From positions 1,515 through 65,514 of IMG/VR virus record IMGVR_UViG_3300044728_000202: DNA of 64,000 nt. One strand, written 5' to 3'. This document shows, piece by piece, positions 28,941 through 54,800 of the stretch (within the stretch, counting starts at the first letter, position 1; every line of letters begins with the position of its first letter). This DNA comes from a virus (Duplodnaviria > Caudoviricetes). The notes under the pieces are model-generated. The model saw only the letters and a list, made by a program, of their open reading frames with translations. It did no database searches and was not told the origin of the DNA. The translations under genes and the position numbers were made by a program.

Positions 28941-28961
28941 CGCAGGACTCCTTGCGAGCCC

Positions 28962-28974
28962 GCACTTCCTGCGC
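28962..28974 (-). promoter_or_regulatory. conserved late-leader box (CsrA-type hairpin), copy 1
   Basis: Minus strand GCGCAGGAAGTGC; preceded by TTGCCG-16-TATAAC (29017-28990). Confidence 0.65.
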
Positions 28975-28990
28975 CGGGTGGTTCAGGCCG

Positions 28991-29443
28991 TTATACAGCC
29001 ATCGACCGCATCGGCAAAGTGATCCACCTGCAGTCCTCGTTCAGCATGCCGTAGAGCAGCAAATCCTCGCCGTCGCGGCCGGCTTTGCGGAGCACGCCTT
29101 CCAGCTTCCAGCAACCGAAATGCTTGACGAAGCGCAGCGACGCCTTGTTGTTCTTCGACACCAGGCAGGAGATCCGCGGGAACCCCAGCTGCAGGAACGG
29201 GTAGGCCATCGCCCGGATGATGAACTCGCGGGTCAACCAAGGGGTGCCTGGCGTGCCGATCACCGTCATCAGGCAGTCGTTGTCGGAGAAGGTGTCGAAC
29301 ACGACGACACCGCGGATCTCGCCGTTGACCTCCTTGGCGATGACCTTGGCGTCCGGTCGAAGGCGGTGGCCCTGCCCGAGCATCGCCTTGGCCCAGTTGG
29401 TCAGCCGCTCGGTCTCCTCGTCGTCGTAGACGTACTCGATCAC
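28991..29443 (-). CDS. GNAT-fold phage tail-region protein (DUF2824-like)
   Basis: YPFLQLGFPRISCLVSKNNKASLRFVKHFG.WKLEGVLRKA. Confidence 0.8.
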   Translation of the reverse strand: MIEYVYDDEETERLTNWAKAMLGQGHRLRPDAKVIAKEVNGEIRGVVVFDTFSDNDCLMTVIGTPGTPWLTREFIIRAMAYPFLQLGFPRISCLVSKNNKASLRFVKHFGCWKLEGVLRKAGRDGEDLLLYGMLNEDCRWITLPMRSMAV

Positions 29444-29835
29444 TTGTCGCCGGTCAGCCGCTTGCGCAGCGCCTCCGACGCCACGAACAGCATCAGGTGG
29501 ACGCGATTGACCTCGGCGATCAGCTTCAAATGCCGGTCCAGCATGCCGTTGTAATTGGCGATGAACGAATTGAATTCTGCCTCGGTCGGCGGCTCGCCGC
29601 CGGTGATCGGCACCATCTTGACGACCGCCAGCCCGAGCTTCTCGGTCGGGATGTGCTGTGGCATCTGCAGGATGCCGATCAGATCTTCGACGCGGACGGC
29701 GGCTTGGCGGCGGTGCGCGACGCGGCGGCCGGCGAGGATGTTCAGCGTTTCCTGGTCGAGCCGCTGCTGCTCGGTGAAGGCGTTGCGGTTGTCCTTCTGC
29801 CGATCGAGCTCCGGCCGATTGGTATGCGAGTCCAT
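29440..29835 (-). CDS. hypothetical virion protein
   Basis: ATG 29835 overlapping upstream TGA; real-looking C-terminal part of ORF 29440..30762. Confidence 0.7.
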   Translation of the reverse strand: MDSHTNRPELDRQKDNRNAFTEQQRLDQETLNILAGRRVAHRRQAAVRVEDLIGILQMPQHIPTEKLGLAVVKMVPITGGEPPTEAEFNSFIANYNGMLDRHLKLIAEVNRVHLMLFVASEALRKRLTGDK

Positions 29836-31718
29836 CAGGGTTGCCGCTTGAGATCGTCCATCGTCTTGGCCAGGGTGAACCGGAAGATGCGACCGTTCGT
29901 GTGAACGTCGATCTCCCATGTGCGCGCCTTGAAGCCGGATGGCAAGCGCACCGGCTTGTTGACCTCGGTGATGAAGATCGGCAGCAGCTTCTTGTCGGCG
30001 TAGATGCCGACCGAGACGGTGGTCTGGCCGGCGGTCGCCGTCGAATCGCCGTTGGCGCCGGTGACGACGGCGCCGCGGGGCAGCCGCAACAGCCAGTCGC
30101 CGCTCATCGGAACGCAGTCCTCGCCACCCATCTTCTCGCCGACGACGATCAGGTTTTCGTCGAAGGTGCCGTTGAGGTCGCCGCCGATGCTCATCAGCTG
30201 GCCGTTGGGGTAGCGCGTCTTCATCGCGATGTTGTTGGCGTCGATGGTCGCTGCGATCTGGTTGGCGACGATATCCGGGCTGGTGGTCTCGGGGTTGACG
30301 ATGCCGTCGATCAGGAAGGCGCCGTAGCTCTCGGGGTAGGGCAGCACGAACTCTTTCGACTTCCAGTAGAGATATTTCGACAGAGCTCCCGGGGCGTCCA
30401 ATTGGCGGATTTCGGCCTTGCCGGTCGGCACGTAGAACAGCGCCGATTCGACCACATCGTAGAGCGCGGCCTGGGCGGTGGTTCCGGCGCGCAACAAGAA
30501 TGATTGCCCACTGAGGTCGATCAGCAGCGCGCCGCGATCGAGCGAGCCGTCCGGCCGCGGCGTGTCGTAGAAGGCGCAATAGCGGCCGTTGTACTGCGCG
30601 CCGATCATGGTCTCGGGCGTCATCGCCGCCCAGTCGTGGCGCGAGAAGATGTTGGAGGTGGCGACGCCGACAGATCCGTCGGCGCGGGCCACGACGACGC
30701 CTTCGTTCGAAGCGTAGGCGACGGCATAGCCGAGGTCGACCAGCGTGCGCTTGCCGATGCACGGCAGGTTCTGCTCGAGCTTTTGCGACGCCATGCTGTC
30801 CGGCTGCGTTCCGGCCACGACGTAGGGCTGGCCCTTGGTGGCGACCAGCAAGGTCATGCCCATCGCGCCGAGCGCGACGATCTCGTAGTCGACGGTGATG
30901 ATGTATTTCTCGGGCCAGGCGTGCGGCTTGTAGGGCTCGGAGAAGTACAGCTTCTTGCCGTCGAACGCCGCCATCATGCCATTTGGTAGCGCTGTCAGGC
31001 CGAGCAGCGTGTCGGGCGGGGCGTTATAGGCGATCGAAGGACACGGCTCGGCGGTGGCGTCGACGGCGATGCTGTCGACATAATCCGCAGCGGTGACGCC
31101 GCGCTGGGCGATCAGGTAGAAGTAGGTGCCCGCCGCGCCCGTCTGAAGCCGATAGATGCGCTGGTAGACGACACCGCGCGCCGGCCCGGTCGGCAGCGTG
31201 AAGCCGCTCAGCGTGACGGTATTGCCGGGCTGCCAGTCGATCAGGTTGGAGACCGGCGACGGCTCGCTTTCCTCTTGGATGCCATTCACCACCGGGATCT
31301 CGGTGACGTAGGTGTAGATGTACTGGCGGCTCTGGATATCGCCGCTGCCGGTGCCGCCCTTGGCCGCAGTGAGCTTGGTCAGCGGCCGCGGCACCGCGAG
31401 GTTGTAGACCGACGTGCCGGTCCGCATCTTCGGAACGCCGTCGCCGGTGTAGTAGATCCGGTCCTCGTCGACCGGCGCCGGAACGCAGTCGACGTCGTTG
31501 GCCCAGCCGATCCATGTGTCGAGATATTTGTAGATGGTCTTCCAGTTGGTCGCTGCGGCCGGCGAGCGGAACACCGATTCGCGGAAAGGCGTCAGGCCGC
31601 CATCGTCGAGGCGGACGTCGAAGGCCGACTGCGCCGCGGTCTCGGGCATCAGCCGCGGGATGATGTGCGGCTGCTCGCCCTGAAATCCGGTGATGACGAT
31701 GACCGGCGCCGAGGGCAT
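29835..31718 (-). CDS. tail nozzle / stabilisation protein (beta-propeller)
   Basis: GFQGEQPHIIPRLMP, LYFSEPYKPHAWP, EQNLPCIGKRT; TAATG overlap start. Confidence 0.75.
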   Translation of the reverse strand: MPSAPVIVITGFQGEQPHIIPRLMPETAAQSAFDVRLDDGGLTPFRESVFRSPAAATNWKTIYKYLDTWIGWANDVDCVPAPVDEDRIYYTGDGVPKMRTGTSVYNLAVPRPLTKLTAAKGGTGSGDIQSRQYIYTYVTEIPVVNGIQEESEPSPVSNLIDWQPGNTVTLSGFTLPTGPARGVVYQRIYRLQTGAAGTYFYLIAQRGVTAADYVDSIAVDATAEPCPSIAYNAPPDTLLGLTALPNGMMAAFDGKKLYFSEPYKPHAWPEKYIITVDYEIVALGAMGMTLLVATKGQPYVVAGTQPDSMASQKLEQNLPCIGKRTLVDLGYAVAYASNEGVVVARADGSVGVATSNIFSRHDWAAMTPETMIGAQYNGRYCAFYDTPRPDGSLDRGALLIDLSGQSFLLRAGTTAQAALYDVVESALFYVPTGKAEIRQLDAPGALSKYLYWKSKEFVLPYPESYGAFLIDGIVNPETTSPDIVANQIAATIDANNIAMKTRYPNGQLMSIGGDLNGTFDENLIVVGEKMGGEDCVPMSGDWLLRLPRGAVVTGANGDSTATAGQTTVSVGIYADKKLLPIFITEVNKPVRLPSGFKARTWEIDVHTNGRIFRFTLAKTMDDLKRQP

Positions 31719-32947
31719 TAGATGTACCTGATCATCTTGTTGAGGATGATGGTCGGCTGGACGTTGTTGTGCGGCTTGTCGGAGCCGACCGAGGCGGTGT
31801 CGCCGACCAGCGAGTGGACGTGCTCGCCGGCGCCGCTGACGGCCAGTGTGTTGAGCTTGTTGCCGTTGCCCCACTCGTAGCCGGGCGCCTGCGCGCCAGT
31901 CAGGGTCGAGTAATTGTGGGTGTGGTCGCCCTCGCCGGTCTTGGTCCTGGCCGTCGCCGTGGCGAGGTTGTGGACGTGCGCCGAGATCTGCGAATCGAGC
32001 AGCGTGTGCGTCTCGAAGCCGCCGACCGCGCCGAGCGTGTCGCCGTTGATGCCGCCGACGGTGCTGGCGGTCGGATTGGTCAGGCGGTTGGCCGAGCCGC
32101 CAGCGCCCATGTTGTCCTTGCCAGCGACGACACGGCCGCGCAGGTCAGGGAGCCGGTATTGCGTGGCCGGCAGCGCGGCCTCGGTGTAGGTCCGCCCGAT
32201 CACCGCGTAGAGCGCGTAATAGGTGCTTCCGGCGGCGCCGTAGGTCAGCGCGCGACCGTCGCATAGCAACCACCCCGATGGCAGCTTGGTGTCTGGGCCG
32301 GCGAAGTCGAAGACGGTGCCGATCGGAATGTCTTCCGGCGCGACGTTCCAGACGCGGGTCCACGCGCCCCAGACGCTGTTGACCTTCTGCCGGCGCCAGC
32401 GCTCGTCGCTGTTGTAGCGTTGCCATTCCTGCAGCTGGACTGCCGCCGAGGCGACGTCGCACTTTAGCCAGGCGTAGTAGTCGACCGGCGTGTTGGTGAC
32501 GCCGGTCGGCAGCCAATAGGTGCCGGATTCGGTGACCAGATTGGCGTCGCCATCGGTGCCGAGGCTCATCTCGGTGGCGCGCAGGCGCGGCGGCAGGCGT
32601 GGGTCAGGGACGATGCCCTTGGTCAGCGAGCCGGCGTCCGACGTCGCTTCGAGCAGAGCTCCGGCGGTGAGACGGACCTCGACCCGGGAATTCAGCGGGA
32701 AGCCGCGCTTGGCGGTGCCCTCCTGACCGCGCACCACCGTCAGCGTGACGCCGGTGCGCGACGTGCAGCGCATGATCTCGCGGTTACCGACATTGTCGGT
32801 GATGGTGACCGGGAACCACTGGTCGGTGGCGACCGCAGCGACGGGGAACCGCGACTCATCGCCCGACGTGATCTTGATCGTCGTGATCGTTGTGTCGATC
32901 GGCTGGGCGAGCAGCGAAATTGCGTTGTTGGTCAGCTGCATTGACAT
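31718..32947 (-). CDS. tail fibre protein with collar domain
   Basis: PIGTVFDFAG...GWLLCDG...LPDLRGRV; HxH motifs; ends HNNVQPTIILNKMIRY. Confidence 0.85.
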   Translation of the reverse strand: MSMQLTNNAISLLAQPIDTTITTIKITSGDESRFPVAAVATDQWFPVTITDNVGNREIMRCTSRTGVTLTVVRGQEGTAKRGFPLNSRVEVRLTAGALLEATSDAGSLTKGIVPDPRLPPRLRATEMSLGTDGDANLVTESGTYWLPTGVTNTPVDYYAWLKCDVASAAVQLQEWQRYNSDERWRRQKVNSVWGAWTRVWNVAPEDIPIGTVFDFAGPDTKLPSGWLLCDGRALTYGAAGSTYYALYAVIGRTYTEAALPATQYRLPDLRGRVVAGKDNMGAGGSANRLTNPTASTVGGINGDTLGAVGGFETHTLLDSQISAHVHNLATATARTKTGEGDHTHNYSTLTGAQAPGYEWGNGNKLNTLAVSGAGEHVHSLVGDTASVGSDKPHNNVQPTIILNKMIRYI

Positions 32948-32970
32948 GGCGGAACCCGTCCTGGGGCGCC

Positions 32971-32983
32971 GCACGTCCTGCGC
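32971..32983 (-). promoter_or_regulatory. conserved late-leader box (CsrA-type hairpin), copy 2
   Basis: Minus strand GCGCAGGACGTGC; second CAGGACG hairpin at 32955-32965 overlaps the RBS. Confidence 0.65.
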
Positions 32984-33023
32984 TGGCTATATCTCGACTA
33001 TAGCAGCCTGCGCCGCCGCCTTG

Positions 33024-33386
33024 CTATCCCGCCAGCTTGACGGGCGGCGGGGCAGTGTTCGAAGGGACCGGCAGCGCGTTGGCAAGGGCGTTGGCGCGCG
33101 CATCCCAGATCGCCGCGATGGCTTTCTCGATGTCGGCGTCCTTCGGCGCTTCCGCACCGCCGTCCTGCAGCGCCTTGCCGACCACCGCGTCGGTGGCGAC
33201 GTGCTGGGCGAGCAGGATGGCGTTCTCGTCGCCGCACAGCACGCGGTTGGCGTAAGCCGCCCGGTTGGTGCGGTTGGGCTGACCCGCCCCTTCAGCAGCG
33301 ACGGACTGCGCGACCTTGAGGGCGGCGAAGCTGACCCGCATGTAGAACGAGGGATCGCTCGCCGCAGTTACGATAGCCAGGCTCAT
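33024..33386 (-). CDS. hypothetical protein
   Basis: ATG 33386 overlapping upstream TGA. Confidence 0.7.
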   Translation of the reverse strand: MSLAIVTAASDPSFYMRVSFAALKVAQSVAAEGAGQPNRTNRAAYANRVLCGDENAILLAQHVATDAVVGKALQDGGAEAPKDADIEKAIAAIWDARANALANALPVPSNTAPPPVKLAG

Positions 33387-33700
33387 CACAGACCTCCCGC
33401 CTTGAGCGCGTCTTTGATCGTGACGCTCTTGTACAACTGATTGCCCTCCGGCGCCTCGCCGATGTTCTTGGCGATCAACGGCGTCGACGCCTTCAACTCG
33501 ATCACCCATTTGTCTTCGTCCGGGTGCCAGACCGCGGTCATGCGCTTGGCGTCCGGCAGGAAAGGCGGCACTTCAAGCGTCGAATGGGCCGGGATCAGGT
33601 ATCGCCCCGGCTCCATCGGGTCAGGATCAGCCGACGACGTGGTGTTGGTGTAGGCGAAGGTGTCAGGGTCGTAATTGTAAGCCACAAGCGGCATTGGCAT
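33386..33700 (-). CDS. tail fibre assembly chaperone (Tfa-like)
   Basis: YNYDPDTFAY...ADPDPMEPGRYLIPAHSTLEVPP directly after tail fibre. Confidence 0.8.
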   Translation of the reverse strand: MPMPLVAYNYDPDTFAYTNTTSSADPDPMEPGRYLIPAHSTLEVPPFLPDAKRMTAVWHPDEDKWVIELKASTPLIAKNIGEAPEGNQLYKSVTIKDALKAGGL

Positions 33701-33710
33701 GGCGGTCTCC

Positions 33711-35528
33711 TCAATAGCTGATGCACGCCAGCAAGGCGTAGTTCATGGGGCGCGTCTCGTTGGGGGCGACCGGCGCCGTGCTGGCGGCGACTGTAACAGC
33801 AACCGTGTGACTATGTGTAGCCGACATCGCGCCGGTGCTGCCAGTGATAGCGTGCGTATGTGCAGCCGAACGGCCGCCGGACGACGAGGCGTTGTCAGCG
33901 AAGGTGTGGGTGTGGCCGACCGAGTTGCCGCCGGTGGTGCCGGCAACGGCGACGGTGTGCGTGTGCGCAGCGCCGGTCGAGTTTGTCGCCGTGGTGGTGC
34001 CCAGCGTCAAGGTGCCGTTGGTCCACGAATACTGCAACGTGCCGCCACTGGTGTAGATGAGATATCCGGTGCCAGACGCCGGGGCGTGAGCATGGTTGGC
34101 GCTGGCGTTGCCGGTCGCCGAGGCATTGTCGGCGAAGGCGTGCGTATGGTTGGCGCTGACGCCGGCCGTGGTGCCCGAGACCGCGGTCGTATGGGTGTGG
34201 TCGGCGCTTTCAGTGCCGGTCACCAGCGTGCCGACAGGGTGCGTGTGGTCGGCGCTGGCGTTGCCCGAGGAGCCGGTGGCGGTGTGGGTGTGCGATTCGA
34301 CGCCGTGGTCCTGGAACGAGCCAAAAGCCCGGCTGGTGTCCAAGCCGCGGGCGTCGTCCCAGCCGCGGATGAAAGTGCCGCGCAGGTCGGGCAAGGCGAA
34401 GGTCGTCGAGCCGTCGCCAGCGCCCCATGTCGTGCCGATCGACGCGAACAGGTTGGCGTAGGTGACGCGGCTGACCAGCGCGCCGTTGGCCTTGAGCCAG
34501 CCCAGAGGTGGCGTGCTGCGGGCGAAGTACGCCACCTGACCGGCGGCGTTCTCACTCATCCAGGGGCTCCAGACGCCGCTGTAACGCCCGCGTTTCCATG
34601 TGCCTAAAGCAGGAGTTCCGGTCGCCGAGTAGGGGTATGCGTACTGGGTGATTTGAGCGCCGCCGTAGACGAGGTTCTGCACGTAGAACCAGTACCCCGG
34701 CACGGGGGCGTTGAGGGCTGTCGAGCCGATCAGCAGCCCGTGCCAGCCCGGCGCCACGACGTTGTTGAAATCGGTGGTGTCGGTGGTGGGCGCTACCGGC
34801 AAACCCGGCGCCGACACCGGCACGGGAACGTTGTTGAAATCGATGACGACGCGCAGCGCCGTCAGGTCGCCGCCGCCAAGCTTGATCGCCACCGGGATGG
34901 TGAACCAGCCGCTGTTGTTGACGGTCGGCCCGGTGGTCCTGAACTGCTTGTACTTGGAGGTCGGAGCGGCCTTGTCCTGAAGCAGGATCAGCGAGCCGGT
35001 TTCGAGCGCCGCCAACTGGACGCCGAGGTTGGCGTTGCCCGCGTTGGTAGCGGATATGAACAGCTGGGTGGTGCTGTTCTGAGTGGCGTTGTTGAACCGC
35101 ACCTCGGCGGCCGCCGGCGGGCCTGCGGTGCCAGCGTTCCACGTCCACTCACCGCCAACGCCGCCGCCGGTCGCCTCGACCCAGGCATTGTTGTTGCGGC
35201 CGAACGTGGCTCCCGTGGCCGGTGCGTCGACCATGATCAGCGCTGCGGTCAGCCGGAGCTCGGCGGGAGAACTGACCGGGAAAGCCTTCGCCGTGGTGCC
35301 TTCGCGAGCTCGCGTCACCGTCAGCGAGTTGCCGCTGCGGGCGGTGCAGTACACGATCTCGTAGAGCGTGCTGGTGTTCGGATCGACGATGGTGAGAGGG
35401 AAGAAATCGCCGGCTGTCGGCGACGGGAACTTGGCCGCGTCGACCGTCTGAATGGTGATCGTCGTCGCCGCAGCCGTGATCGCGGCGCCGAGCGTCGACG
35501 AGGCGTTGTTGGCGAAGATGACGGCCAT
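33711..35528 (-). CDS. tail fibre protein with collar domain and HxH needle repeats
   Basis: AGQVAYFARSTPPLGWLKANG...LPDLRGTFIRGWD; about eight HxH motifs; ETRPMNYALLACISY. Confidence 0.88.
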   Translation of the reverse strand: MAVIFANNASSTLGAAITAAATTITIQTVDAAKFPSPTAGDFFPLTIVDPNTSTLYEIVYCTARSGNSLTVTRAREGTTAKAFPVSSPAELRLTAALIMVDAPATGATFGRNNNAWVEATGGGVGGEWTWNAGTAGPPAAAEVRFNNATQNSTTQLFISATNAGNANLGVQLAALETGSLILLQDKAAPTSKYKQFRTTGPTVNNSGWFTIPVAIKLGGGDLTALRVVIDFNNVPVPVSAPGLPVAPTTDTTDFNNVVAPGWHGLLIGSTALNAPVPGYWFYVQNLVYGGAQITQYAYPYSATGTPALGTWKRGRYSGVWSPWMSENAAGQVAYFARSTPPLGWLKANGALVSRVTYANLFASIGTTWGAGDGSTTFALPDLRGTFIRGWDDARGLDTSRAFGSFQDHGVESHTHTATGSSGNASADHTHPVGTLVTGTESADHTHTTAVSGTTAGVSANHTHAFADNASATGNASANHAHAPASGTGYLIYTSGGTLQYSWTNGTLTLGTTTATNSTGAAHTHTVAVAGTTGGNSVGHTHTFADNASSSGGRSAAHTHAITGSTGAMSATHSHTVAVTVAASTAPVAPNETRPMNYALLACISY

Positions 35529-35531
35529 CGG

Positions 35532-35828
35532 CTACTCGTCCTTGATCTGCAGGACGAAACGGGCCTCCTTGATGCGGCCAGCCATCGTCGTGGCGAACAC
35601 CGCAATCTCGCTGACATCGCCGTTGACGCCGCCGAATACCCAGACGCGGACGACCTGCGAGGTGACCTCGATGACGTCGATGGAGAAGCTGACGTCGGGG
35701 GATGTCACCGACGCCGTGGCGCTGGAAATGACGTCGTCGTCGGTCAGCCACTTGCCATAGTCGATGTCGTAATCGAGCCGATCGGCCGAGGTCTTTTCGA
35801 GGTTCGCGAGGGCGGCGGCGGTTGTCAC
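35532..35828 (-). CDS. fibre-tail adaptor-like protein
   Basis: KTSADRLDYDIDYGKWL..DDVISSATA. Confidence 0.6.
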   Translation of the reverse strand: MTTAAALANLEKTSADRLDYDIDYGKWLTDDDVISSATASVTSPDVSFSIDVIEVTSQVVRVWVFGGVNGDVSEIAVFATTMAGRIKEARFVLQIKDE

Positions 35829-36418
35829 TTCAGCACGTCATCTTTCTGCCGGGCGAGCGTGGGCACGGCGGCCGGCACGTTGACCTTGCGGTATTCGGCT
35901 TGCAGAGCCAGGCGGCGACCCATGCCGAACGGCACGTTGATGCGCCTGACCATCTTCCAGCGGCTGATGAAGGTGCGTTCGAACAGGCCGTTGAGCTCGA
36001 CGCCGAGGCCCATCGTCCCGGCGAACGAGGCGAAGGTATTGACCCGGCCGAGCATGAAGATCGTGGATTCGGAGAGACCGCCGAGCGTGAAAGCCTGCGT
36101 CGCCTCTGCGTGAGTATCGACGACGGTCTCGCTGTGGCCGCCCAGCGTGTGGCCATAGGTGAGCGCGGAGTGGGCCGGCAGCTGGACGGTAGACTTGCCG
36201 CCCATCGAGTGGATGTAGTCGAGCTTGGTGATCCTGACCGGCAAGGTGACGGGAGCTCGCAGGAACCCCATGTCGCGGACCTGCGTGGCCTTGACGGACG
36301 CGCCGAGGGAAACGGCAGCCGTGCCGGAGATATCGGTCGAAAACCGTTCACCGCCAGCGACTGGATAGTAGTTGACCTCACGGTCATTGATCGCCCCTCT
36401 GAGCGGCGCCAGCGCCAC
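35825..36418 (-). CDS. hypothetical tail-region protein
   Basis: Coupled ORF in structural operon. Confidence 0.65.
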   Translation of the reverse strand: MALAPLRGAINDREVNYYPVAGGERFSTDISGTAAVSLGASVKATQVRDMGFLRAPVTLPVRITKLDYIHSMGGKSTVQLPAHSALTYGHTLGGHSETVVDTHAEATQAFTLGGLSESTIFMLGRVNTFASFAGTMGLGVELNGLFERTFISRWKMVRRINVPFGMGRRLALQAEYRKVNVPAAVPTLARQKDDVLK

Positions 36419-36419
36419 T

Positions 36420-36836
36420 TTAGATCACCGTTGCCTGCAGCTTGCTCGGGTTGATGACGCATTCGTCGGACGGCGCCAGCGTCTTCGACACATCGAGCGC
36501 GCCGTAGATGTACATCTGCCCGCCGACCAGCGCGTTCCACAGCGCGAAGTGGGTGATGACCAGCGGCACCGGACCGTCCATGATGCCGTATTCCATGCGC
36601 TGCGCGTTGGCGGTCAGCTTGCCGGACGACGGCGTGAACGCCGTGTCGATCAGCCCGCCGAACGACGGATCGACGCGCTTGTAGGCGGGCCACGCCGACA
36701 GCGACACCTCGTTGGCGCCGGTGACGGTCGGGTCGGCGGTGTGCAGCGACACCCACAACCTGACTGGTGGCACCGGCACGACACCGCGCAGGTAGCAGTT
36801 GAGGATCGAATCGCCGATCAGGACTGAAGCTGGCAT
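36420..36836 (-). CDS. tail-associated hypothetical protein
   Basis: LWVSLHTADPT..GANEVS...YKRV. Confidence 0.65.
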   Translation of the reverse strand: MPASVLIGDSILNCYLRGVVPVPPVRLWVSLHTADPTVTGANEVSLSAWPAYKRVDPSFGGLIDTAFTPSSGKLTANAQRMEYGIMDGPVPLVITHFALWNALVGGQMYIYGALDVSKTLAPSDECVINPSKLQATVI

Positions 36837-37459
36837 CAGAAAAACGCTCCCTTGGTGCGCAGCCGTGCGCCGGGCTGGCCTTTGGTGTGCTCGACCTTCA
36901 GCGATGCGAGCTTGGATCGGAACTCGGAGATTAGCGCGGCACCGAGGTTCGGGTTGGCGAAGGAGGCGGTCGGCAGCATCAGCATCATGCCGGCCGCGCC
37001 ACGGCCGACGGTGGTGGCGTGCAGGCCGACCAGGACGTCAGGCAGCGTCTGCGCGTTCAGCGACGGCTGCAGCACCAAGCGGATCTGGGCAGTGCCCTTT
37101 TCGCGCGGCCAGAACGACATCAGCCGCGGGTTGGTCTGGGTGATGAAACGCGCCGACCCGGGCGCGGCTTCGCGGTCCCAACCGGGGTGGCTCTCGTCGA
37201 GCCAGCCGACGGTGACCGCCTGCAGATCGTGGTTGTTGAGGCGTGCCGCCTGGATCTCGACAATCTCGGCGTCGGGCACGGTGATGATCGGCTGCGCTTC
37301 GGGAACCACCACCTGAACGTCGTGCCAGACGCGCCACAGCCGCGCCGAATGGCAGAGCTCGCGGCACGCCTCGATGATGTAGCGCAGCGCGATCGGCTCC
37401 GGCGCGCTCGGCGCGAAGGGCAGGATCTGCGGCAGGAGCTCGTCGATCGCGCGCGTCAT
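36836..37459 (-). CDS. head-tail adaptor / tail tubular protein
   Basis: LLPQILPFAPSAPEPIAL...ACRELC...W; position. Confidence 0.7.
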   Translation of the reverse strand: MTRAIDELLPQILPFAPSAPEPIALRYIIEACRELCHSARLWRVWHDVQVVVPEAQPIITVPDAEIVEIQAARLNNHDLQAVTVGWLDESHPGWDREAAPGSARFITQTNPRLMSFWPREKGTAQIRLVLQPSLNAQTLPDVLVGLHATTVGRGAAGMMLMLPTASFANPNLGAALISEFRSKLASLKVEHTKGQPGARLRTKGAFF

Positions 37460-38229
37460 CAGCGTTTCGCATTCGGGCTATGCGCCTGCTCGACCTGCAC
37501 TTTCATGCCGATCGCAGTCGCGAACTGTTGGTAGTGGACAGCGGCGCGGCCGGAGGCGCCGTCGATGTCGTCCTTCATCTGGCAGCGGTACAGGACGTAG
37601 TCGAGGATCGGCACCGAGTACGGCTCTGGCAGGCCGATCTGTTGATTGAACGACTGCGGCTGCGTCAGCTTGTAGCCCTGCGGATTGGGCACCGGCAGGA
37701 TCGCCTTGATCGGCTGCGGCAGGACGCCGGCTTCCACTTCGACATAGCCGGTGCCGTCATTGCCCGGGTAGACGAAGAACTCCAACGGCACCGTCTCGTT
37801 GAAGGTGAAGTTACGGACCTCGCGCTTCTGTTGGAGGATCGCCTTGTTGTGCCAGTTGGGGTCCTGCGCATCGAGCAGGGCGCGGTCGACGGCCTTGATC
37901 ATGCGGCCGCCGGCGGTCGTCGTGACGACGCCGTTGCTGTCCAGCGCGACGGTGACGTTGCGCAGCACGTTGAGCAGCGTCAGCGGGTAGGCGCCGCCGG
38001 TGAAGGTGCCGGTCGACGCCGGGTTCAGGCCGTAAGGGTTGAGGGTCTGGCGGGTGCCGGCCGCCAGTTTGACGATCAGCGTCTTCGAACTGGCCGATGG
38101 CTTGGCCAGAACGATGGCGCGGGTCGCCTCGTTGATCCACTCGCATAGCTCAGCGCACGGCCACCGAACGAAGTCGGTGTCATTGAGCAGCACCGCTGCC
38201 CGGGTCATAATCTCCGTGCCGGTTGGCAT
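37459..38229 (-). CDS. DUF6682-like head-tail adaptor
   Basis: LLNDTDFVRWPCAELCEWINEA...KPSA...ILDYVLYR. Confidence 0.75.
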   Translation of the reverse strand: MPTGTEIMTRAAVLLNDTDFVRWPCAELCEWINEATRAIVLAKPSASSKTLIVKLAAGTRQTLNPYGLNPASTGTFTGGAYPLTLLNVLRNVTVALDSNGVVTTTAGGRMIKAVDRALLDAQDPNWHNKAILQQKREVRNFTFNETVPLEFFVYPGNDGTGYVEVEAGVLPQPIKAILPVPNPQGYKLTQPQSFNQQIGLPEPYSVPILDYVLYRCQMKDDIDGASGRAAVHYQQFATAIGMKVQVEQAHSPNAKR

Positions 38230-38232
38230 TCA

Positions 38233-38946
38233 TCACCTTGCGAGCTTTTTGGCCTGTCCAAGCCAGTCGTCGCGGGCTGAGCGGCCGCCCAGTCCGAGTT
38301 CCTCATCGAGTGCGGCGAGCTCCTTCTTGTTGAGCTTGGCTAGCGCGCGAACGTCGCCGATGCCGGCCTTCTGCAACCGCGTCTCGAGCGCCGGCCCGAC
38401 GCCGATAATGTCGGTCAACGGAATGTCGTTCTCGTCATCGCCGCCCAGCTGCTCGAGATCGGCCAGCGGCGCCTCGGTGAAGCTGAAGTCGAGCGACCGC
38501 GATTCGCCGCCGTCGGGGCCGCGCAACAGCACCGGATAAGACCCGGCGACACTCGCCGTCGACGGCTTGACGATCGTGGTGACCTCGCTCGAGGAGACGA
38601 ACGTCGTCGGCTCCTCGCCGCCGTTGAAGACGATCAGCGTTTCGGCCGTAAAGCCGTTGCCGTAGCAATGCAGCGTGACGTCCTCGCTGCCGATCTCGGC
38701 GGTGTCGGGCGACAGGACATCGAGCGAGAGCCCAGTCGGTGGCGGGTTGCCGCCACCCGGCACCCATGGGTCGGTATTGTCCTTGTTGACCGCCCGGTAG
38801 TGGTCAACGACGGCCAGGAACACCTTGACGTGCTTGTCGATCCAGACCTCGGCGACATAGCGCCCGAACTGGTCCGGCAGGAATTCATAGATGACCCCGC
38901 CGACCTCCTCGGTGACCGGACCGTAGGTGCATTCAATCGTTGCCAT
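38233..38946 (-). CDS. Ig-like (IPT/TIG) + helix-hairpin-helix protein
   Basis: LSPDTAEIGSEDVTLHCYGNGF; PLTDIIGVGPALETRLQKAGI. Confidence 0.7.
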   Translation of the reverse strand: MATIECTYGPVTEEVGGVIYEFLPDQFGRYVAEVWIDKHVKVFLAVVDHYRAVNKDNTDPWVPGGGNPPPTGLSLDVLSPDTAEIGSEDVTLHCYGNGFTAETLIVFNGGEEPTTFVSSSEVTTIVKPSTASVAGSYPVLLRGPDGGESRSLDFSFTEAPLADLEQLGGDDENDIPLTDIIGVGPALETRLQKAGIGDVRALAKLNKKELAALDEELGLGGRSARDDWLGQAKKLAR

Positions 38947-38949
38947 CGC

Positions 38950-39093
38950 TCAACCCTTCCGCTTTCCACGGCTCTTCAGCGGCGGCCGCACCGGCGGCGG
39001 CGCTTTGACTGCCTTGCCCACCTTTACCGTGCCGCCGGTGTCTGAGCGATAGGCTGCCCCCCTCGACATCCACGGCGTCGATTTCTTGGCCAT
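38950..39093 (-). CDS. small basic protein, 47 aa (not in ORF track)
   Basis: MAKKSTPWMSRGAAYRSDTGGTVKVGKAVKAPPPVRPPLKSRGKRKG. Confidence 0.6.
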   Translation of the reverse strand: MAKKSTPWMSRGAAYRSDTGGTVKVGKAVKAPPPVRPPLKSRGKRKG

Positions 39094-39098
39094 CGGTC

Positions 39099-40388
39099 TC
39101 ACCACCTCTTCTTGAACACGCTGTCGACGTCGACCTTCTTCTTCAGCCGGTCGCCTTTCGGCGCCACGGCAACCGCCTTGACGGAGGCGACGGGTTGACG
39201 GACCACCCTGCCGGCCTTGGCCGTGCTCTGGTTGGCGGGGGCACGGCTGGCCTGGTCGGCCCTCGCCGAACGCTGCCTGGCGGCCGCCATCGCCGCGTCG
39301 AGTTTCTGTTGCTGGGTGAACTTGTTGGGCGCCACCGTGGCGCTGCTGACCGACTTGACCGTCGGCGGCGTCAGCGGAAGCTTGCCTTGCGGCACGCCCG
39401 GAGCGTTGCCGACATTGGCGGGCCGACCCGCCTGCTTGACGCTGGCGTGGGTGATCTGCGGGCCGCGCGGCGACGGCGACTTGGTCACCAGATCCATGCG
39501 CTTGCGCGTGTCCATGACGTCGGCAGCGGTGCGCGCCGGGTCGGCGGCATATTGCGGCTTCGGCGGGAACAGCACCTTGTCACGGACCGACGTCAGCAGA
39601 CTGGAGACCGGCTTGCGCGGTGTCGTTCCGGTGCTGCCGACATTGTCCGGCCGCTTGGCCATCGGCGTCGGCCGGTTGCCGACATTGTCAGGCGGCCGGT
39701 TGACCGGGCGCAGCGTCGGATGCTGGCCGGCTGCAACCTTGGCCTTGGCCTTCTCGAGATAGCCGCGCGCCGCGGGCGACAGGCCGGGGTCGGGCTTGGC
39801 GAAAGCAGTCGGCTTGGGTGGCGTGTTGCGGTCCATCTGCCGCTTCGCGGAGATGTCCTTGACGTTCTGCCGGGCCTTGTCCATCGCCGTTTTGGTCGCC
39901 GCCTTGCGCTCGTCGGGCGTGCGCTGCTCGGTCGGTCCGAAATAGACCGGCTTCTGAGCTCGCGGCGCCGGCGTGTTGCCGACATTGTCGGGCCGGTTCG
40001 ACGACGGCGGATACGGCTTGCGGGTCGGGGTCGGCACGTCGGAGGAGACGGAAGCGTTGGGGCCGCGCGGCGCGCTCTTGGGCAGCGGCACGCCCTTGTC
40101 CGGCAGCCCGGAGGCGGCCGAGCGCGGTGCGGGCTTTGGCAGGACCGTGGTCTTCTTGGCCAGCGTGGTCGGCGCCGATCCGCCCTTCGGCTTGACGGCG
40201 GCCATCGTCGACTTGGCCGTGCCACCGCTGGCCAGCTTGGTGCTGTAGCTCTTGCCGCCGAAGGTGAAATTCTTGGCGCCCTTGGCCTTCTGGCGCGCGA
40301 ACTCCTTGTCGAACGCCTTGCCGCCCTTCGAACGACCTTTCTTGCGCGATGCGGCCAACTCTGCCTCCGTGCCTATGAACAGGCCCAC
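39099..40388 (-). CDS. Lys/Arg/Pro-rich low-complexity protein with RPDNVG repeats
   Basis: Four RP(P)(D/A)NVG repeats; N-terminal AFDKEFARQKAKGAKNFTFGGKSYST. Confidence 0.75.
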   Translation of the reverse strand: MGLFIGTEAELAASRKKGRSKGGKAFDKEFARQKAKGAKNFTFGGKSYSTKLASGGTAKSTMAAVKPKGGSAPTTLAKKTTVLPKPAPRSAASGLPDKGVPLPKSAPRGPNASVSSDVPTPTRKPYPPSSNRPDNVGNTPAPRAQKPVYFGPTEQRTPDERKAATKTAMDKARQNVKDISAKRQMDRNTPPKPTAFAKPDPGLSPAARGYLEKAKAKVAAGQHPTLRPVNRPPDNVGNRPTPMAKRPDNVGSTGTTPRKPVSSLLTSVRDKVLFPPKPQYAADPARTAADVMDTRKRMDLVTKSPSPRGPQITHASVKQAGRPANVGNAPGVPQGKLPLTPPTVKSVSSATVAPNKFTQQQKLDAAMAAARQRSARADQASRAPANQSTAKAGRVVRQPVASVKAVAVAPKGDRLKKKVDVDSVFKKRW

Positions 40389-40390
40389 GT

Positions 40391-40690
40391 TCAGTCCTTC
40401 TCGTTAAACCACTTCAGGCCTTTTTGCCCGCCGCGAACGTCGACACTGCCCTTCTTCTTGCCTTGCAGCACGTCGAGACCGCGCATGATCGACTCGGTCC
40501 CTGCCTCGCTCTTCTCGATGATATTCAGATCGTGGCGCCGATCGAAAGACCGATCCATGCTGCCGGTCAGGAACTTGCGAGTGTCCTTGGCAACCGGATG
40601 GTCCTTACCGAAACGCGCTTCGAGCTCCTCGGTGCTCTTGAGAAGCTCACGCTCCGGTTTCGGTGCGGGGCGCCCAATGCCGGTCGGCAT
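40391..40690 (-). CDS. small charged hypothetical protein
   Basis: Ends KGLKWFNEKD. Confidence 0.7.
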   Translation of the reverse strand: MPTGIGRPAPKPERELLKSTEELEARFGKDHPVAKDTRKFLTGSMDRSFDRRHDLNIIEKSEAGTESIMRGLDVLQGKKKGSVDVRGGQKGLKWFNEKD

Positions 40691-40693
40691 GGC

Positions 40694-41326
40694 TCAGTCG
40701 TCGCCTCCCCTGAACCACTTCAGCCCCTTGGTATTGTGGACGCTGTTGCGCTTCTTGGCGGTCGCCACGGTTTCGCCGCGACGGTAGGCGGTCGAGTTGA
40801 CGCGGCCCTCTTCCTTGGCCAGGCGACGCGCCGCCCGATCGCGCGCATTGTCGCCGCCGCCGCGCTGTGACGACATGCGGCGGTTCTCTTCCGCGTAAAG
40901 CTGGTCGAAGCGGGCGTCGCGGCCGTTGCCGCCGCCGCCCGAACTGGCGACCGGAGCTCGCACCGTCGTGGTCTTGGTGACCGACGGTCCGCGTGGCTTG
41001 CTGGTCTTGGGGCCCTTCGGCGTCGACGGCTTCACCGGATCGGCCAGGCCCTCGACCGTGCGGATCGGCTGGCCGCCGACGGTCTCGCCCTTGAGCTCGT
41101 CCCAGACCTCGCCAAGGAAGCTGCGCTTGCCGGTCTTGTAGTCGTCGGCGCGGCGGCTGTCGGGCTTGTACTTGAATTTCTTGTTGGTGCCGTAGAGATC
41201 GACGTCCGGCTTCGGATCCTTGATCTCATCACCCGTCAGGGTGTGGGTCTTCAACCAATTGTAGCCCTTGCCGATGCCGGTGCCGACATCGCCGAGCGTC
41301 CAGGGTTTGATTTCTTTCGGGGCCAA
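40694..41326 (-). CDS. basic hypothetical protein (TTG start)
   Basis: GAGGAG RBS 9 nt before TTG; ends KGLKWFRGGDD. Confidence 0.7.
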   Translation of the reverse strand: MAPKEIKPWTLGDVGTGIGKGYNWLKTHTLTGDEIKDPKPDVDLYGTNKKFKYKPDSRRADDYKTGKRSFLGEVWDELKGETVGGQPIRTVEGLADPVKPSTPKGPKTSKPRGPSVTKTTTVRAPVASSGGGGNGRDARFDQLYAEENRRMSSQRGGGDNARDRAARRLAKEEGRVNSTAYRRGETVATAKKRNSVHNTKGLKWFRGGDD

Positions 41327-41335
41327 GACCTTAAA

Positions 41336-41401
41336 CTCCTCTTCAAACGATGCCGGCGGCCATCGGAGCCTGAAGAGGAGGCCGGTCCCGAGGGCCGCCG
41401 G
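41336..41401 (-). promoter_or_regulatory. RBS-sequestering pseudoknot or switch
   Basis: 10-bp stem 41336-41345/41371-41380 crosses 9-bp stem 41353-41361/41393-41401. Confidence 0.5.
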
Positions 41402-41437
41402 TTATAGCCTGAGTACCTTGCCCGGTTTGCGCCGAAC

Positions 41438-41923
41438 TCAGGCAACCATCCAGACGCCCAGCGTGACGGATTGAATCGTCGCGGCCGAGATGGCGCCTGC
41501 AGTGACAATGGCGAGCTCCCGCTCATAGCCGACCGGATTGATCGCAAAGCCGGTCGTCGCGCTCATGCGCGTAGCGGAGGCCGCTGCGACGGACGCAGCC
41601 GCGAACAGTTCGGAGCCGACGGTGCGTGCCGCGAGATCGGCGGCGCTATTCGAACCGGGAGGCGCCGCAGGCGTGCGGGTGTCGGCGACGACGCCCGCGT
41701 TGACCGTGACACCGGCTCCGACAGCGCTGCTTTCCAGCACGGCGTCGACGATGCGGCAGCCGGGCGGAAGAACGCCGATGCCGATGGTCGTGCCGATCGC
41801 CGTGTTGGCGGGGATGTTGGCGGTGAAACGGTTGTAGATGACGTCACCGGCAGACTGCGGATAGGCGACCGCCTGCGTGCCCGCGACCGCGGGACCCCTG
41901 ACGTATGCTCCAGCGATAGCCAT
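41438..41923 (-). CDS. capsid decoration/cement protein
   Basis: Directly after capsid gene; IGVLPPGCRIVDAVL motif; AAGGAG RBS. Confidence 0.7.
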   Translation of the reverse strand: MAIAGAYVRGPAVAGTQAVAYPQSAGDVIYNRFTANIPANTAIGTTIGIGVLPPGCRIVDAVLESSAVGAGVTVNAGVVADTRTPAAPPGSNSAADLAARTVGSELFAAASVAAASATRMSATTGFAINPVGYERELAIVTAGAISAATIQSVTLGVWMVA

Positions 41924-41933
41924 AGATTTCTCC

Positions 41934-43034
41934 TTACGGGTTCGGGTCCTTGGCGGCGGTGTCGATCGACAGGATGCCGAAATCCTTGCCGTTGAAGCGG
42001 GTCTTCTTGACACCCATGATGACGCCGGCCGCGACCTTCGGCTCGTTGCCGTGGTCGGACATCTCTTCGGTCCAGGTGAACCGCAGCCCACCCGCCGAAC
42101 CATATGCGCAGACGCCTGCCTGGCGGCCCATGAACAGGGCGCGGGCGGCGAGCACGTTGGAGCCTGCGCCGTAGTCGTTGAAGCGGATGACGCTCTCGTG
42201 GCTGTGCAGGACGACGTTGTCGATCATTCCGAGGCCGCCCTTGAAGATCGGGTTGTTGCGGCCTTCCGCCTGCGCGGCTGCCTTCTGGATGTCGAGCCAG
42301 CCACCGGCGTCCGAAATGCGGAGGTCGTGTTCCTGGAACGGCGACATGACGAGCACGTAGTGCTGCTCGCCGTCAATCGAGATCGCGATCATATTGGCCG
42401 TGGTCGGATCCATCGCCCTCATCATCGTCGCCTTGACGGCGGCGCGCTCGACGACGGCGCGGGTCATGGTGTCGCCAACGACCAGCGTGTTCTTGGCGTT
42501 GCCGGTGCCGCCGTAGAGGATGTGGCCGGCGTCGGGAGCATCGATGGTGTTGCCGGCAAAGCCGGTCCAAGTGATGTCCTCGACGTAGTCCTGGTTGATG
42601 CCGCGAGCTCCGCTCAGATAGATGAAATTCAGCTGGTCGATGTACTGCGACCAATAATCCGAAAGGCGGTCGCGCGCGATCGAGCGGATGTTGTGTAGAG
42701 TGCGCTTGCGGCTCATCTTGCCGCCAGCGGAGACACCATGCCGCATTTGATCGATGTAGACCTGGTCGGTGAAGAACCGGAGATTCTCCTCCTTGCCCTC
42801 CAGTCGGTTGTCGCCCGTGGTCGGCTTATTGCGGAGTTGCACCGACAGATCGAAGCTGATGGTGTCGCCGGCGTCCGATTCAAGGTCCGTGAGACGCTGG
42901 ATCACTCCGTTGTCGGACTCCGATACGAACTTGCGATCGAAGTAGCCCTTCGACAGGATGTCGAGGAAAAGCTGACCTGACCAGCGCTTGACGGCCTTGG
43001 GATCGCCGAACGGGATTGTGGTGGGACCAGCCAT
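41934..43034 (-). CDS. major capsid protein, N4-gp56 (DUF4043) family
   Basis: FGDPKAVKRWS, DLESDAGDTISFDL, LEGKEENLRF, ARALFMGRQA, GVKKTRFNGKDFG; GGAGG RBS. Confidence 0.93.
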   Translation of the reverse strand: MAGPTTIPFGDPKAVKRWSGQLFLDILSKGYFDRKFVSESDNGVIQRLTDLESDAGDTISFDLSVQLRNKPTTGDNRLEGKEENLRFFTDQVYIDQMRHGVSAGGKMSRKRTLHNIRSIARDRLSDYWSQYIDQLNFIYLSGARGINQDYVEDITWTGFAGNTIDAPDAGHILYGGTGNAKNTLVVGDTMTRAVVERAAVKATMMRAMDPTTANMIAISIDGEQHYVLVMSPFQEHDLRISDAGGWLDIQKAAAQAEGRNNPIFKGGLGMIDNVVLHSHESVIRFNDYGAGSNVLAARALFMGRQAGVCAYGSAGGLRFTWTEEMSDHGNEPKVAAGVIMGVKKTRFNGKDFGILSIDTAAKDPNP

Positions 43035-43058
43035 GACGTGCAACCTCCAGGTGGGTCA

Positions 43059-43071
43059 GCACGTCCTGCGC
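43059..43071 (-). promoter_or_regulatory. conserved late-leader box (CsrA-type hairpin), copy 3
   Basis: Minus strand GCGCAGGACGTGC; preceded by TTGCCG-17-TATTTC (43109-43081). Confidence 0.65.
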
Positions 43072-43122
43072 TTTTGCGAAGAAATACTTCGAAACGATCG
43101 CGACGGCAAGCGCCGCCGCGAA

Positions 43123-43479
43123 TCAGACGGTGACGGAGTTGTCGAGCACCGTCAGGAACAGCCGATCGGCGCTCTGCGGCACCGGCCACATCGACGTGCC
43201 GGATCGGAATTTGACGTAGCTGACGGCGATGGCCGACTCGCCACTCAGCGACACCGCGCGGCCGAGGCCGTCGCAGACCAGCGCGATCTCCTTGCCGTCC
43301 GAATGGAACAGACTGTCGAAGTGGATGCCGTCGACCGACACCATGAAGGTCAACGGAGCGGTGTCCCAGGCGGTCGGCATGACGATGCGGACCGGCCGCC
43401 CGGCGGTGAAATTAGCGATCTCTGAAAGCGATTCGCCCGCCCGGATGATCGGACCGTCGATGATGACCAGCTGTGCCAT
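43123..43479 (-). CDS. hypothetical head-region protein
   Basis: IRAGESLSE...VRIVMPTAW..APLTFMVSVDG. Confidence 0.7.
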   Translation of the reverse strand: MAQLVIIDGPIIRAGESLSEIANFTAGRPVRIVMPTAWDTAPLTFMVSVDGIHFDSLFHSDGKEIALVCDGLGRAVSLSGESAIAVSYVKFRSGTSMWPVPQSADRLFLTVLDNSVTV

Positions 43480-43488
43480 GCGAGCCTC

Positions 43489-43704
43489 CTAAGCCACTGA
43501 GCGGAAGTCCTCGAGCACGCGCTTGGGCACGCCGGTGATGCCGTGCGTGTAGCGTGCCGGAACGATGCCGTGAGCGAGCATGCGCAGCGGCAGGTCGGTG
43601 AAGAACGCCAGCTTCACCATCGAACCGGATTTCTGCTCGACACGCACCGCAGCGACGTCGCCGATTTCCATGCCCTCGCCGACGCGCAGCGTTTTAGAAA
43701 ACAT
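43489..43704 (-). CDS. csrA: CsrA/RsmA-like RNA-binding protein (divergent)
   Basis: MFSKTLRVGEGMEIGDVAAVRVEQKSGSMV vs E. coli [30 protein letters not shown]: 13/30 identical by manual alignment; C-terminal HREE absent. Confidence 0.7.
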   Translation of the reverse strand: MFSKTLRVGEGMEIGDVAAVRVEQKSGSMVKLAFFTDLPLRMLAHGIVPARYTHGITGVPKRVLEDFRSVA

Positions 43705-48252: not shown

Positions 48253-48329
48253 TGCAGCACCCACAGCAGCACGATCACCAGCACGACGCCGGCGATAAAC
48301 CAGGTTCCCCAGGCTTCCGGCCGCATCAT
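48249..48329 (-). CDS. 26-aa single-TM peptide (not in ORF track)
   Basis: MMRPEAWGTWFIAGVVLVIVLLWVLQ; overlaps both neighbours by 4 nt. Confidence 0.55.
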   Translation of the reverse strand: MMRPEAWGTWFIAGVVLVIVLLWVLQ

Positions 48330-54728: not shown

Positions 54729-54768
54729 GCTCGGCGTGCGTCCTGTGGGTCGCTGGCCGGCATAGCAC

Positions 54769-54800
54769 AAACGAAAGCGCCCGGCACGAGGCCGGGCGCT
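54769..54800 (-). terminator. rho-independent terminator
   Basis: 10-bp stem AGCGCCCGGC/GCCGGGCGCT followed by a T-rich run (TTCGTTTG) on minus strand. Confidence 0.75.

Follow-up and report, generated by a model that had tools for sequence, protein, structure and literature searches.

A conserved late-leader hairpin co-inherited with a diverged CsrA-like gene in Bcep22-like phages: a candidate translational switch

The phage and its late genes

The stretch analysed here, hereafter the window, comprises 64,000 nucleotides of a tailed-phage genome (IMG/VR record IMGVR_UViG_3300044728_000202, positions 1,515 to 65,514). It represents nearly all of a 65.5-kb virus record that has 65% GC and is rated complete. 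The late genes in the window all lie on the minus strand, and three of them are preceded by the same short hairpin, here called the box. Two genes upstream of the major capsid gene, as an initial annotation of the sequence had pointed out, lies a small gene for a 71-amino-acid (aa) CsrA-like protein. We propose that box and protein may be the two halves of a phage-encoded switch for late-gene translation.

The genome has the traits of Bcep22-like (Lessievirus-type) podophages: a P22-like portal, a capsid protein of family PF13252, a giant virion protein and, within the head module, a csrA-like gene. At the DNA level, its capsid gene is 70-74% identical to those of Sinorhizobium phage PBC5 and the Bcep22-like Burkholderia phages BcepMigl and BcepIL02. 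The nearest prophages are found in Alphaproteobacteria, namely in Phyllobacterium (73%), followed by Rhizobium, Shinella and Devosia. Further late genes encode tail fibres with collar domains, an internal virion protein and terminase subunits. Coordinates are collected in Table 1.

Table 1. Genes and leader features of the window, with the evidence for each.
Feature	Position	Strand	Evidence or remark
CsrA-like gene (P0001), 71 aa, candidate trans-acting factor	43489-43704	-	Two genes upstream of capsid
Major capsid gene, proposed main regulated target	41934-43034	-	Pfam PF13252 Phage_capsid_3, E 1e-65; PHROG 334, E 1e-121
Box 1 (GCGCAGGACGTGC), hairpin of capsid mRNA 5′ leader	43059-43071	-	Exact match; -3.1 kcal/mol; homologous boxes in capsid leaders of relatives
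Anti-box GCACGTC beside capsid AUG (43034-43032)	43035-43041	-	Pairs GACGUGC of box; minimum free energy (MFE) fold; covariation in relatives; box-to-start duplex z-scores
Capsid Shine-Dalgarno (SD) sequence GGAGG	43044-43048	-	Within loop closed by box/anti-box helix
Promoter-like TTGCCG-17 nt-TATTTC	43081-43109	-	Putative; ends 9 nt upstream of box 1
Box 2 (GCGCAGGACGTGC), leader of tail-fibre gene	32971-32983	-	Exact match; relative L009
Tail-fibre gene	31718-32947		PHROG 8469
Box 3 (GCGCAGGAAGTGC), leader of 417-aa virion protein gene	28962-28974	-	Exact match
Anti-box TCCTGCG beside AUG of 417-aa protein gene	28941-28947	-	Pairs box bases CGCAGGA; MFE fold -23.4 kcal/mol, z = -2.7
417-aa virion protein gene	27687-28940	-	Peptidase_S74; PHROG 8003
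P22-like portal gene	44671-47073	-
Giant virion (DarB-like) protein gene, 3958 aa	14631-26507	-	Single open reading frame, typical for the phage group

Three boxes in late leaders

A scan of the window agrees with the placement of the boxes in the initial annotation. There are three exact copies of GCGCAGGAMGTGC, all on the minus strand and intergenic, ending 24, 23 and 21 nt ahead of the ATG of the capsid, fibre and 417-aa virion protein genes. The pattern GCGCAGGA(C/A)GTGC has no other exact copy in the 65.5-kb record, and none of the other minus-strand gaps exceeding 30 nt, of which there are 18 in all, holds the canonical hairpin. With up to one mismatch allowed, there are seven matches against 0.86 expected, a number that none of 100 shuffles reaches. 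The one-mismatch matches at 4895, 24062, 28286 and 56788 lie inside genes or antisense and were rejected as members.

Each box folds, as had been described, into a 4-bp hairpin with an AGGA(C/A) loop, worth -3.1 kcal/mol. A second GGA lies in each SD region, at 18, 17 and 18 nt from the GGA of the box in leaders 1 to 3. The boxes recur ahead of corresponding genes elsewhere: the relative L009 has the same box before its own fibre gene, and homologues of the 417-aa protein that begin MGKGS are likewise box-preceded in L023 and L052. This protein had been labelled a pilot protein, which is probably wrong, because residues 276-325 form a Peptidase_S74 (endosialidase chaperone) domain. It also matches PHROG 8003 ("virion structural protein") and is more likely a fibre or spike.

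Two of the leaders share the -35 hexamer TTGCCG, followed by TATTTC or TATAAC after spacers of 17 and 16 nt, again as first noted. A simple sigma70 consensus scan makes no call on either element, and we therefore treat the one at the capsid gene as a putative promoter only. Its hexamers are kept, with a varying spacer, in L006, L007, L009 and L011. The promoter-like element of box 3 (28990-29017, minus strand) is embedded in the 3′ end of an acyl-CoA N-acyltransferase gene (28991-29443, minus strand; PHROG 4470), and its -10 TATAAC includes the stop codon of that gene.

Two further sites in the window resemble the box. A weak variant hairpin, CGGC-AGGAU-GUCG (49459-49471, minus strand), sits in a 395-nt gap, 168 nt ahead of a 321-aa gene (48326-49291). 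A CAGGACG before terS (54739-54745), proposed earlier as a related site, was rejected: with no flanking stem and about 10 nt to the ATG, it most likely represents the SD region or a chance match. What looks like an intrinsic terminator parting terS from the upstream genes, a GC-rich hairpin (GCGCCCGGC-ctcgt-GCCGGGCGC, then TTTCGTTTG; 54768-54799, minus strand), is located about 40 nt before the terS ATG.

A family-wide leader hairpin

We compared the window with 80 IMG/VR loci and 38 prophage loci that hold capsid relatives (38-99% identity), together with published phages. This gave about 120 related phages and prophages in total, and the leader motif was recovered in about 100 lineages. Relatives are cited by their locus handles (such as L009) where needed. 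Nearly every capsid leader among them, including those of PBC5 and BcepIL02, carries GCGCA-N-GA-(N)-GTGC or a variant of it.

What is conserved is a stem and a loop. With only the core CGCA-N-GA-(N)-GYG held constant, 94 of 97 leader copies have outer bases that pair, as against 56 of 121 non-leader copies; the pairs in the leaders are G-C (76), U-A (8), A-U (3), C-G (2) and G-U (5). The four core pairs can form in nearly all sequences of alignment A1 (one exception among 49). This alignment holds one compensatory change from G-C to U-A and keeps a G3-U11 pair in 46 of the 49. Some lineages have replaced the whole stem and retained the loop, as in GGCUC-AGGA-GGGCC, CCGC-AUGAC-GUGG and GGCU-AUGAC-GGCC. 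Copies of the box are sense to the gene 115 times and antisense 15 times. Judged from these alignments, the box is a family-wide RNA leader element with a 4-5 bp stem maintained by compensatory changes and a loop of the form A-N-G-A-(N).

The loop departs from the site first assigned to it. The initial annotation had read the box as a CsrB-type CAGGA(U/A/C)G site, which describes the window's AGGA(C/A) loops and does not hold for the family, where N is G, U or A. Loops among relatives are AGGA, AUGA or AAGA, rarely ACGA, AUCA or AUAC. The strict GGA of a CsrA site (A(N)GGA; the CsrB/RsmZ-type repeat) is thus not kept across the family. In one genome (G001), AAGA and AUGA boxes occur side by side, so GGA is not the conserved determinant. 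Rfam 15 has no match at gathering score in the whole window, with only noise (E 0.4-4) around the capsid leader, and this search of the window revealed no CsrB-like sponge RNA.

Complete relatives hold four or five boxes each, versus none or one with a reversed-pattern control. These boxes follow sigma70-like -10 hexamers by 9-15 nt and precede the ATG by 21-48 nt, and from this spacing we infer that the box occupies about +2 to +9 of the transcript. The genes behind them encode the capsid, a divergently transcribed endolysin, fibres, the PHROG 8003 protein and the large virion protein.

Several arrangements stand out among the relatives. In PBC5-type genomes (L002 PBC5, L014, L015, L019, L023 and L052), capsid and endolysin genes diverge from back-to-back promoters, each with its own box. 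Tandem boxes, about 26-33 nt apart, occupy one capsid leader in L065/L066 (9918 and 9944), L125 and L146. At L077:8767, L082:2227, L083:4222 and L085:2730, a second box (UCGCA-N-GA-GUGA) abuts the SD (AGGAG) and has no closing helix of the kind described below. The gene it precedes lies about 1.2-1.35 kb upstream of the capsid gene and is probably scaffold-like; repression at that gene could result from this geometry. In one clade (L032, L043, L044, L048, L050, L051, L053, L055 and L056), late promoters of the form TTGCA(A/T)-17 nt-GAAAAT, with a conserved AACCA-like spacer core, lie about 40-60 nt upstream of the capsid box. This core may be a transcription factor site that exists besides the RNA element. 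Finally, a box-like GCGCATGAGTGC in the PBC5 record (L091, 961-972) follows three TGTGGGTA repeats and contains the annotated integrase start codon. It is probably chance or part of an attachment (att) or operator region, and not a leader box.

An alternative helix that closes the start site

Part of the box, in some leaders with its flanking bases, has its complement in the stretch that immediately precedes the AUG or includes it. In the window, the pairings GACGUGC/GCACGUC and CGCAGGA/UCCUGCG had been proposed for the first and third leaders, and both form part of the predicted MFE folds. These folds, of -21.1, -20.2 and -23.4 kcal/mol for leaders 1, 2 and 3, pair the box with the spacer and AUG in place of the small hairpin; that of leader 2 likewise pairs the box with the AUG. 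Because they share nucleotides, the hairpin and the closing helix are mutually exclusive.

In relatives, box and start region change together, as in the compensatory pairs GGAGCGCC/GGCGCUCC, GGAAGUGCC/GGCACUUCC and GAGGUGCUCC/GGAGCACCUC. A covariance model of the closing helix realigned 44 sites. Five of its eight pairs show double (compensatory) changes and none of 500 shuffles reaches the observed covariation, which is to be read with the caveat that the alignment was fitted to the model; slid registers score lower. Another covariance model (R1), fitted to long-looped boxes of 12 nt, failed to recover the leader of the window itself at E <= 1. Across 84 non-redundant leaders, the box-to-start duplex has a mean z of -2.2 against shuffled start regions, and 61% of leaders have z below -2.

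In box-bearing leaders (n = 85), the predicted cost of opening the capsid start region is about 13 kcal/mol, versus 2-12 in seven box-less relatives. Keeping the small hairpin formed takes 4.5-11.6 kcal/mol and makes the start 4-11 kcal/mol cheaper to open. According to de Smit and van Duin, start-site structure is reportedly related inversely to translation. At about 13 kcal/mol, the start would thus be too closed for bulk production of a structural protein unless something opened it.

These features also bear on whether the box works as RNA at all. A DNA operator downstream of the late promoters, bound for example by a repressor that silences them in lysogens, would suit a box placed 9-15 nt after promoter-like -10 hexamers and the fact that several relatives are proviruses. 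We nevertheless regard it as very improbable. The conserved G-U pair and the G-U variants would be mismatches in DNA, the compensatory changes preserve pairing and not sequence, and the partner element follows the AUG, at a distance from the box that varies between 21 and 48 nt. Together with the strong strand bias, the G-U pairs and compensatory changes argue for an RNA element.

A diverged CsrA-like protein

The 71-aa protein matches PHROG 8397 ("CsrA-like regulator") over residues 3-32 (E 1e-5) and the hidden Markov model (HMM) of its family at E 2e-17. By iterated HMM search, a member of this family is present in essentially every locus, and among the loci searched in this way in each one with sufficient DNA upstream. 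A search for related loci that started from the 71-aa protein alone brought up no genome relatives. A profile of 51 phage homologues, the window protein included, matches RsmE (Protein Data Bank (PDB) 2jpp) at E 8e-11 and CsrA (1y00) at 3e-7, with matches spanning to 1e-6. These profile matches suggest that the protein belongs to a diverged CsrA family, an assignment that holds at the level of the family and is weak for the single sequence.

An AlphaFold2 model (alignment A4; predicted local distance difference test score 82.5) places strands at residues 2-6, 11-14, 18-21, 30-34 and 40-42 and a helix at 62-70. The predicted five beta strands and C-terminal helix, in a protein of about 60-75 aa, are as in CsrA/RsmA. 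The conserved residues with which CsrA/RsmA proteins contact RNA are L2, L4, R6 and R7 in beta1 and V40, V42 and R44 in beta5. Among the 51 homologues, the RNA-contact columns of beta1 hold L at position 2 in 33, a hydrophobic residue at 4, L and not R at 6, and R or K at 7 in 38. Those of beta5 hold I, V or L at window residue 40 and, in about two-thirds, R in either of two adjacent columns. Co-variation of the loop base N with the protein's Arg44 was considered and dropped. N differs between boxes of a single genome, and it differs between L023 and L052, whose beta5 segments are near-identical.

The gene has been annotated in Bcep22-like phages before; in BcepIL02, gp49 adjoins the capsid gene. 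In phage JC1, gp47 matches Pfam CsrA and was found in virions, by one peptide only (PMC9144972). Such genes have been seen as morons, host manipulators or defence modulators, and a cis target within the phage has not been proposed (PMC9144972, PMC7366521, PMC8450108).

Box and gene are inherited together

If the protein reads the box, the two should share a history. The initial annotation looked to their co-occurrence across relatives as a check. On a capsid tree, box and csrA-like gene agree in every one of the 97 capsid lineages for which both were scorable, being jointly present or jointly absent. A box in a relative lacking the gene was looked for in these lineages and not found. The tree contains three joint changes of box and gene, two of them on well-supported branches, which is the pattern expected of a dependent pair.

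In most genomes, about 100-150 nt separate the end of the csrA-like gene from the capsid ATG, which places promoter and box directly after the gene. In PBC5-type genomes, about 30 kb part the capsid gene from the portal-scaffold-csrA block. With the gene some 30 kb away, both box and gene are kept in PBC5, L023, L052 and the Devosia, Rhizobium and Shinella prophages. Both are absent from the complete genome of Paracoccus phage KLEP18-1 and from the L127-130 clade, of which L129 and L130 keep the scaffold-like gene. Two Acinetobacter prophages also lack both, and their genomes hold only the canonical host csrA, beside aspartokinase.

This distribution speaks to whether the host might supply the reader. 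The window's CAGGA(C/A)G loops are identical to CsrB repeats, so the boxes could serve as sites for host CsrA, either placing late genes under a host regulator or titrating it as CsrB does. Such a role is hardly credible to us, given that many relatives, and different boxes within single genomes, have AGA or UGA in place of GGA. Acinetobacter does have csrA, but the box is missing from its prophages of this family. Alphaproteobacteria are the likely hosts, and both S. meliloti and the B. cepacia complex are without chromosomal csrA (PMC7366521). With the nearest prophages in Alphaproteobacteria and a chromosomal csrA lacking in those two groups, the phage protein is the one constant candidate.

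A proposed model for late translational control

We propose that the leader RNA of the capsid, fibre and virion-protein mRNAs, and in relatives of the endolysin mRNA, could adopt two states, with the box as its 5′-proximal part. In the first, the box would form the small hairpin, with its 4-5 bp stem and A-N-G-A-(N) loop. In the second, part of the box, with flanks in some leaders, would pair with the spacer and AUG 20-45 nt downstream and close the ribosome-binding region. The CsrA-like protein would be made from the portal-scaffold transcription unit just upstream, bind the hairpin as it emerges from RNA polymerase, block the closing helix and turn translation on; the bound protein may also protect the 5′ end of the leader. 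The outcome would be a phage-autonomous switch by which capsid, fibre and lysis proteins are made only once late expression is under way.

The comparison shows the element, its two helices with their conservation, and the joint inheritance with the gene; transcription start sites, binding of the protein to the RNA and the direction of control are the steps we infer. Since the box is transcribed 20-45 nt ahead of its partner, a binder of the nascent hairpin could set the fold during transcription. The closed start, the lower opening cost with the hairpin in place and the order of transcription together favour activation by capture, which would work as Mu Com does on mom. This reading, in which the phage protein seizes the hairpin while it is nascent and so leaves the start site open, is in our judgement an even call.

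Several observations weigh against this proposal. The joint changes of box and gene number only two or three, and a sign test cannot reach significance. The loop departs from the canonical GGA, so recognition of the CsrA type is not to be taken for granted. Taken alone, the 71-aa protein has no match to Pfam CsrA (PF02599) at E < 0.01. Its beta5 segment reads LPLRM, whose Arg falls on the Arg44 position or one residue away from it according to the aligner used, and the position is not conserved in the family. Searches of the monomer model with Foldseek and VIA-align gave no CsrA match (RsmN 4kji, Z 2.1), although such searches are uninformative for a strand-swapped dimer like CsrA. Some leaders have a weak closing helix or none, for example L031, L074:6706 and the L077-type box abutting the SD. 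Lastly, the constant 17-18 nt between the GGA of the box and that of the SD region in the window's clade fits bridging repression by CsrA at least equally well.

Such repression is the same partnership with the opposite sign. A CsrA-like dimer would bridge the box and the GGA or ANGA of the SD region, which could provide feedback, with free protein not yet in particles limiting the synthesis of capsid and fibre. Mercante et al. 2009 reportedly found an optimal dual-site CsrA spacing close to the 17-18 nt seen here, and repression is the commonest mode of CsrA. The second boxes that abut the SD in L077, L082, L083 and L085 are in keeping with it, as is the single virion peptide of JC1 gp47 (PMC9144972). 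Even so, we find repression distinctly unlikely. The start is already closed without protein, so a repressor adds little, and the major capsid protein is needed in bulk late in infection. Moreover, the box lies anywhere from 21 to 48 nt before the ATG across relatives, hence the 18-nt spacing is a matter of one clade.

The partnership itself may instead be illusory. The leader could act alone or with another factor, as a 5′ shield from RNase E, a translation tuner or a site for a host or other phage protein, while the CsrA-like protein targets host mRNAs. This would accord with the published view of phage csrA as a host-manipulating tool (PMC9144972, PMC8450108) and with a loop lacking a conserved GGA, and co-inheritance could stem from shared membership of the head module. 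We think it rather unlikely, since the association outlasts relocation of the gene, and gene and box were lost together where the scaffold-like gene was kept (L129, L130). The loop is also kept across hosts from the Acinetobacter relatives to Rhizobiales, at 33-65% GC, which points to a phage-borne reader.

Returning to activation by capture, the RNA switch, the late regulon and the link to csrA that the initial annotation had proposed are retained, and its GGA or CsrB-type site and the membership of terS are not. In its widest form, the proposal is of a phage translational timer. A diverged CsrA with an altered RNA code (an A-N-G-A tetra- or pentaloop on a stem with G-U) would unlock self-closed capsid, fibre and lysis mRNAs by capturing their 5′-terminal hairpin during transcription, so that these proteins follow portal and scaffold. 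Protein and element would have stayed together through inheritance, relocation and loss in phages of Alpha-, Beta-, Gamma- and Deltaproteobacteria, CsrA-free hosts included. We put this forward tentatively, as plausible and somewhat short of probable.

Significance and comparison with known systems

A literature search on the box strings and on phage-CsrA control of late genes found nothing relevant. The RNA element and its regulon appear to be undescribed; the csrA gene was previously annotated. Phage csrA genes have been catalogued for more than a decade without a known target, and the conserved cis element that these phages carry in their late leaders supplies a specific role that can be tested. 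The leader motif is widespread, with about 100 lineages, and covariation backs both alternative helices. If the model is true, CsrA-type control reaches hosts that lack CsrA, and a variant recognition motif, ANGA instead of GGA, is suggested. The system would offer a compact, orthogonal protein-RNA switch for practical use, and the motif should make the late promoters and leaders of therapeutic Burkholderia and Ralstonia phages easier to annotate.

Among mobile elements, csrA genes of the same family and genomic position are known from Bcep22, BcepIL02, DC1 and JC1, and there are plasmid and integrative and conjugative element (ICE) copies. Those reports treat them as morons or as host or defence modulators of unknown function and propose no cis target in the phage, in contrast to the pairing suggested here.

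The closest molecular likeness is to CsrA and RsmA-RsmE, such as E. coli CsrA and P. fluorescens RsmE bound to hcnA (2jpp). The phage protein shares their length of about 60-70 aa, the predicted order of strands and helix, and a match at the level of the family profile. Their sites, too, are short-stemmed 5′ leader hairpins that expose a purine-rich loop close to the SD or overlap it, and the CAGGA(C/A)G loops of the window are of this kind. Unlike them, the phage protein is highly diverged, with the R6 and R44 positions not conserved. The phage loop is A-N-G-A-(N), of 4-5 nt, and not A-N-G-G-A, and the proposed targets are the phage's own late genes.

Activation also has precedents. E. coli CsrA opens a hairpin at ymdA and protects the 5′ end of flhDC from RNase E. 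There, as proposed here, a CsrA-family protein near the 5′ end opens an SD-hiding structure or blocks RNase E, but it is a host global regulator with GGA sites and not a dedicated, co-inherited pair of protein and element. The logic of the favoured model is that of Com in phage Mu, a small protein that binds the mom leader beside a start-hiding stem and activates translation of this late gene. Com is a zinc-finger protein unrelated to CsrA and has one target, whereas the phages described here have three to five such leaders per genome, each with an alternative hairpin.

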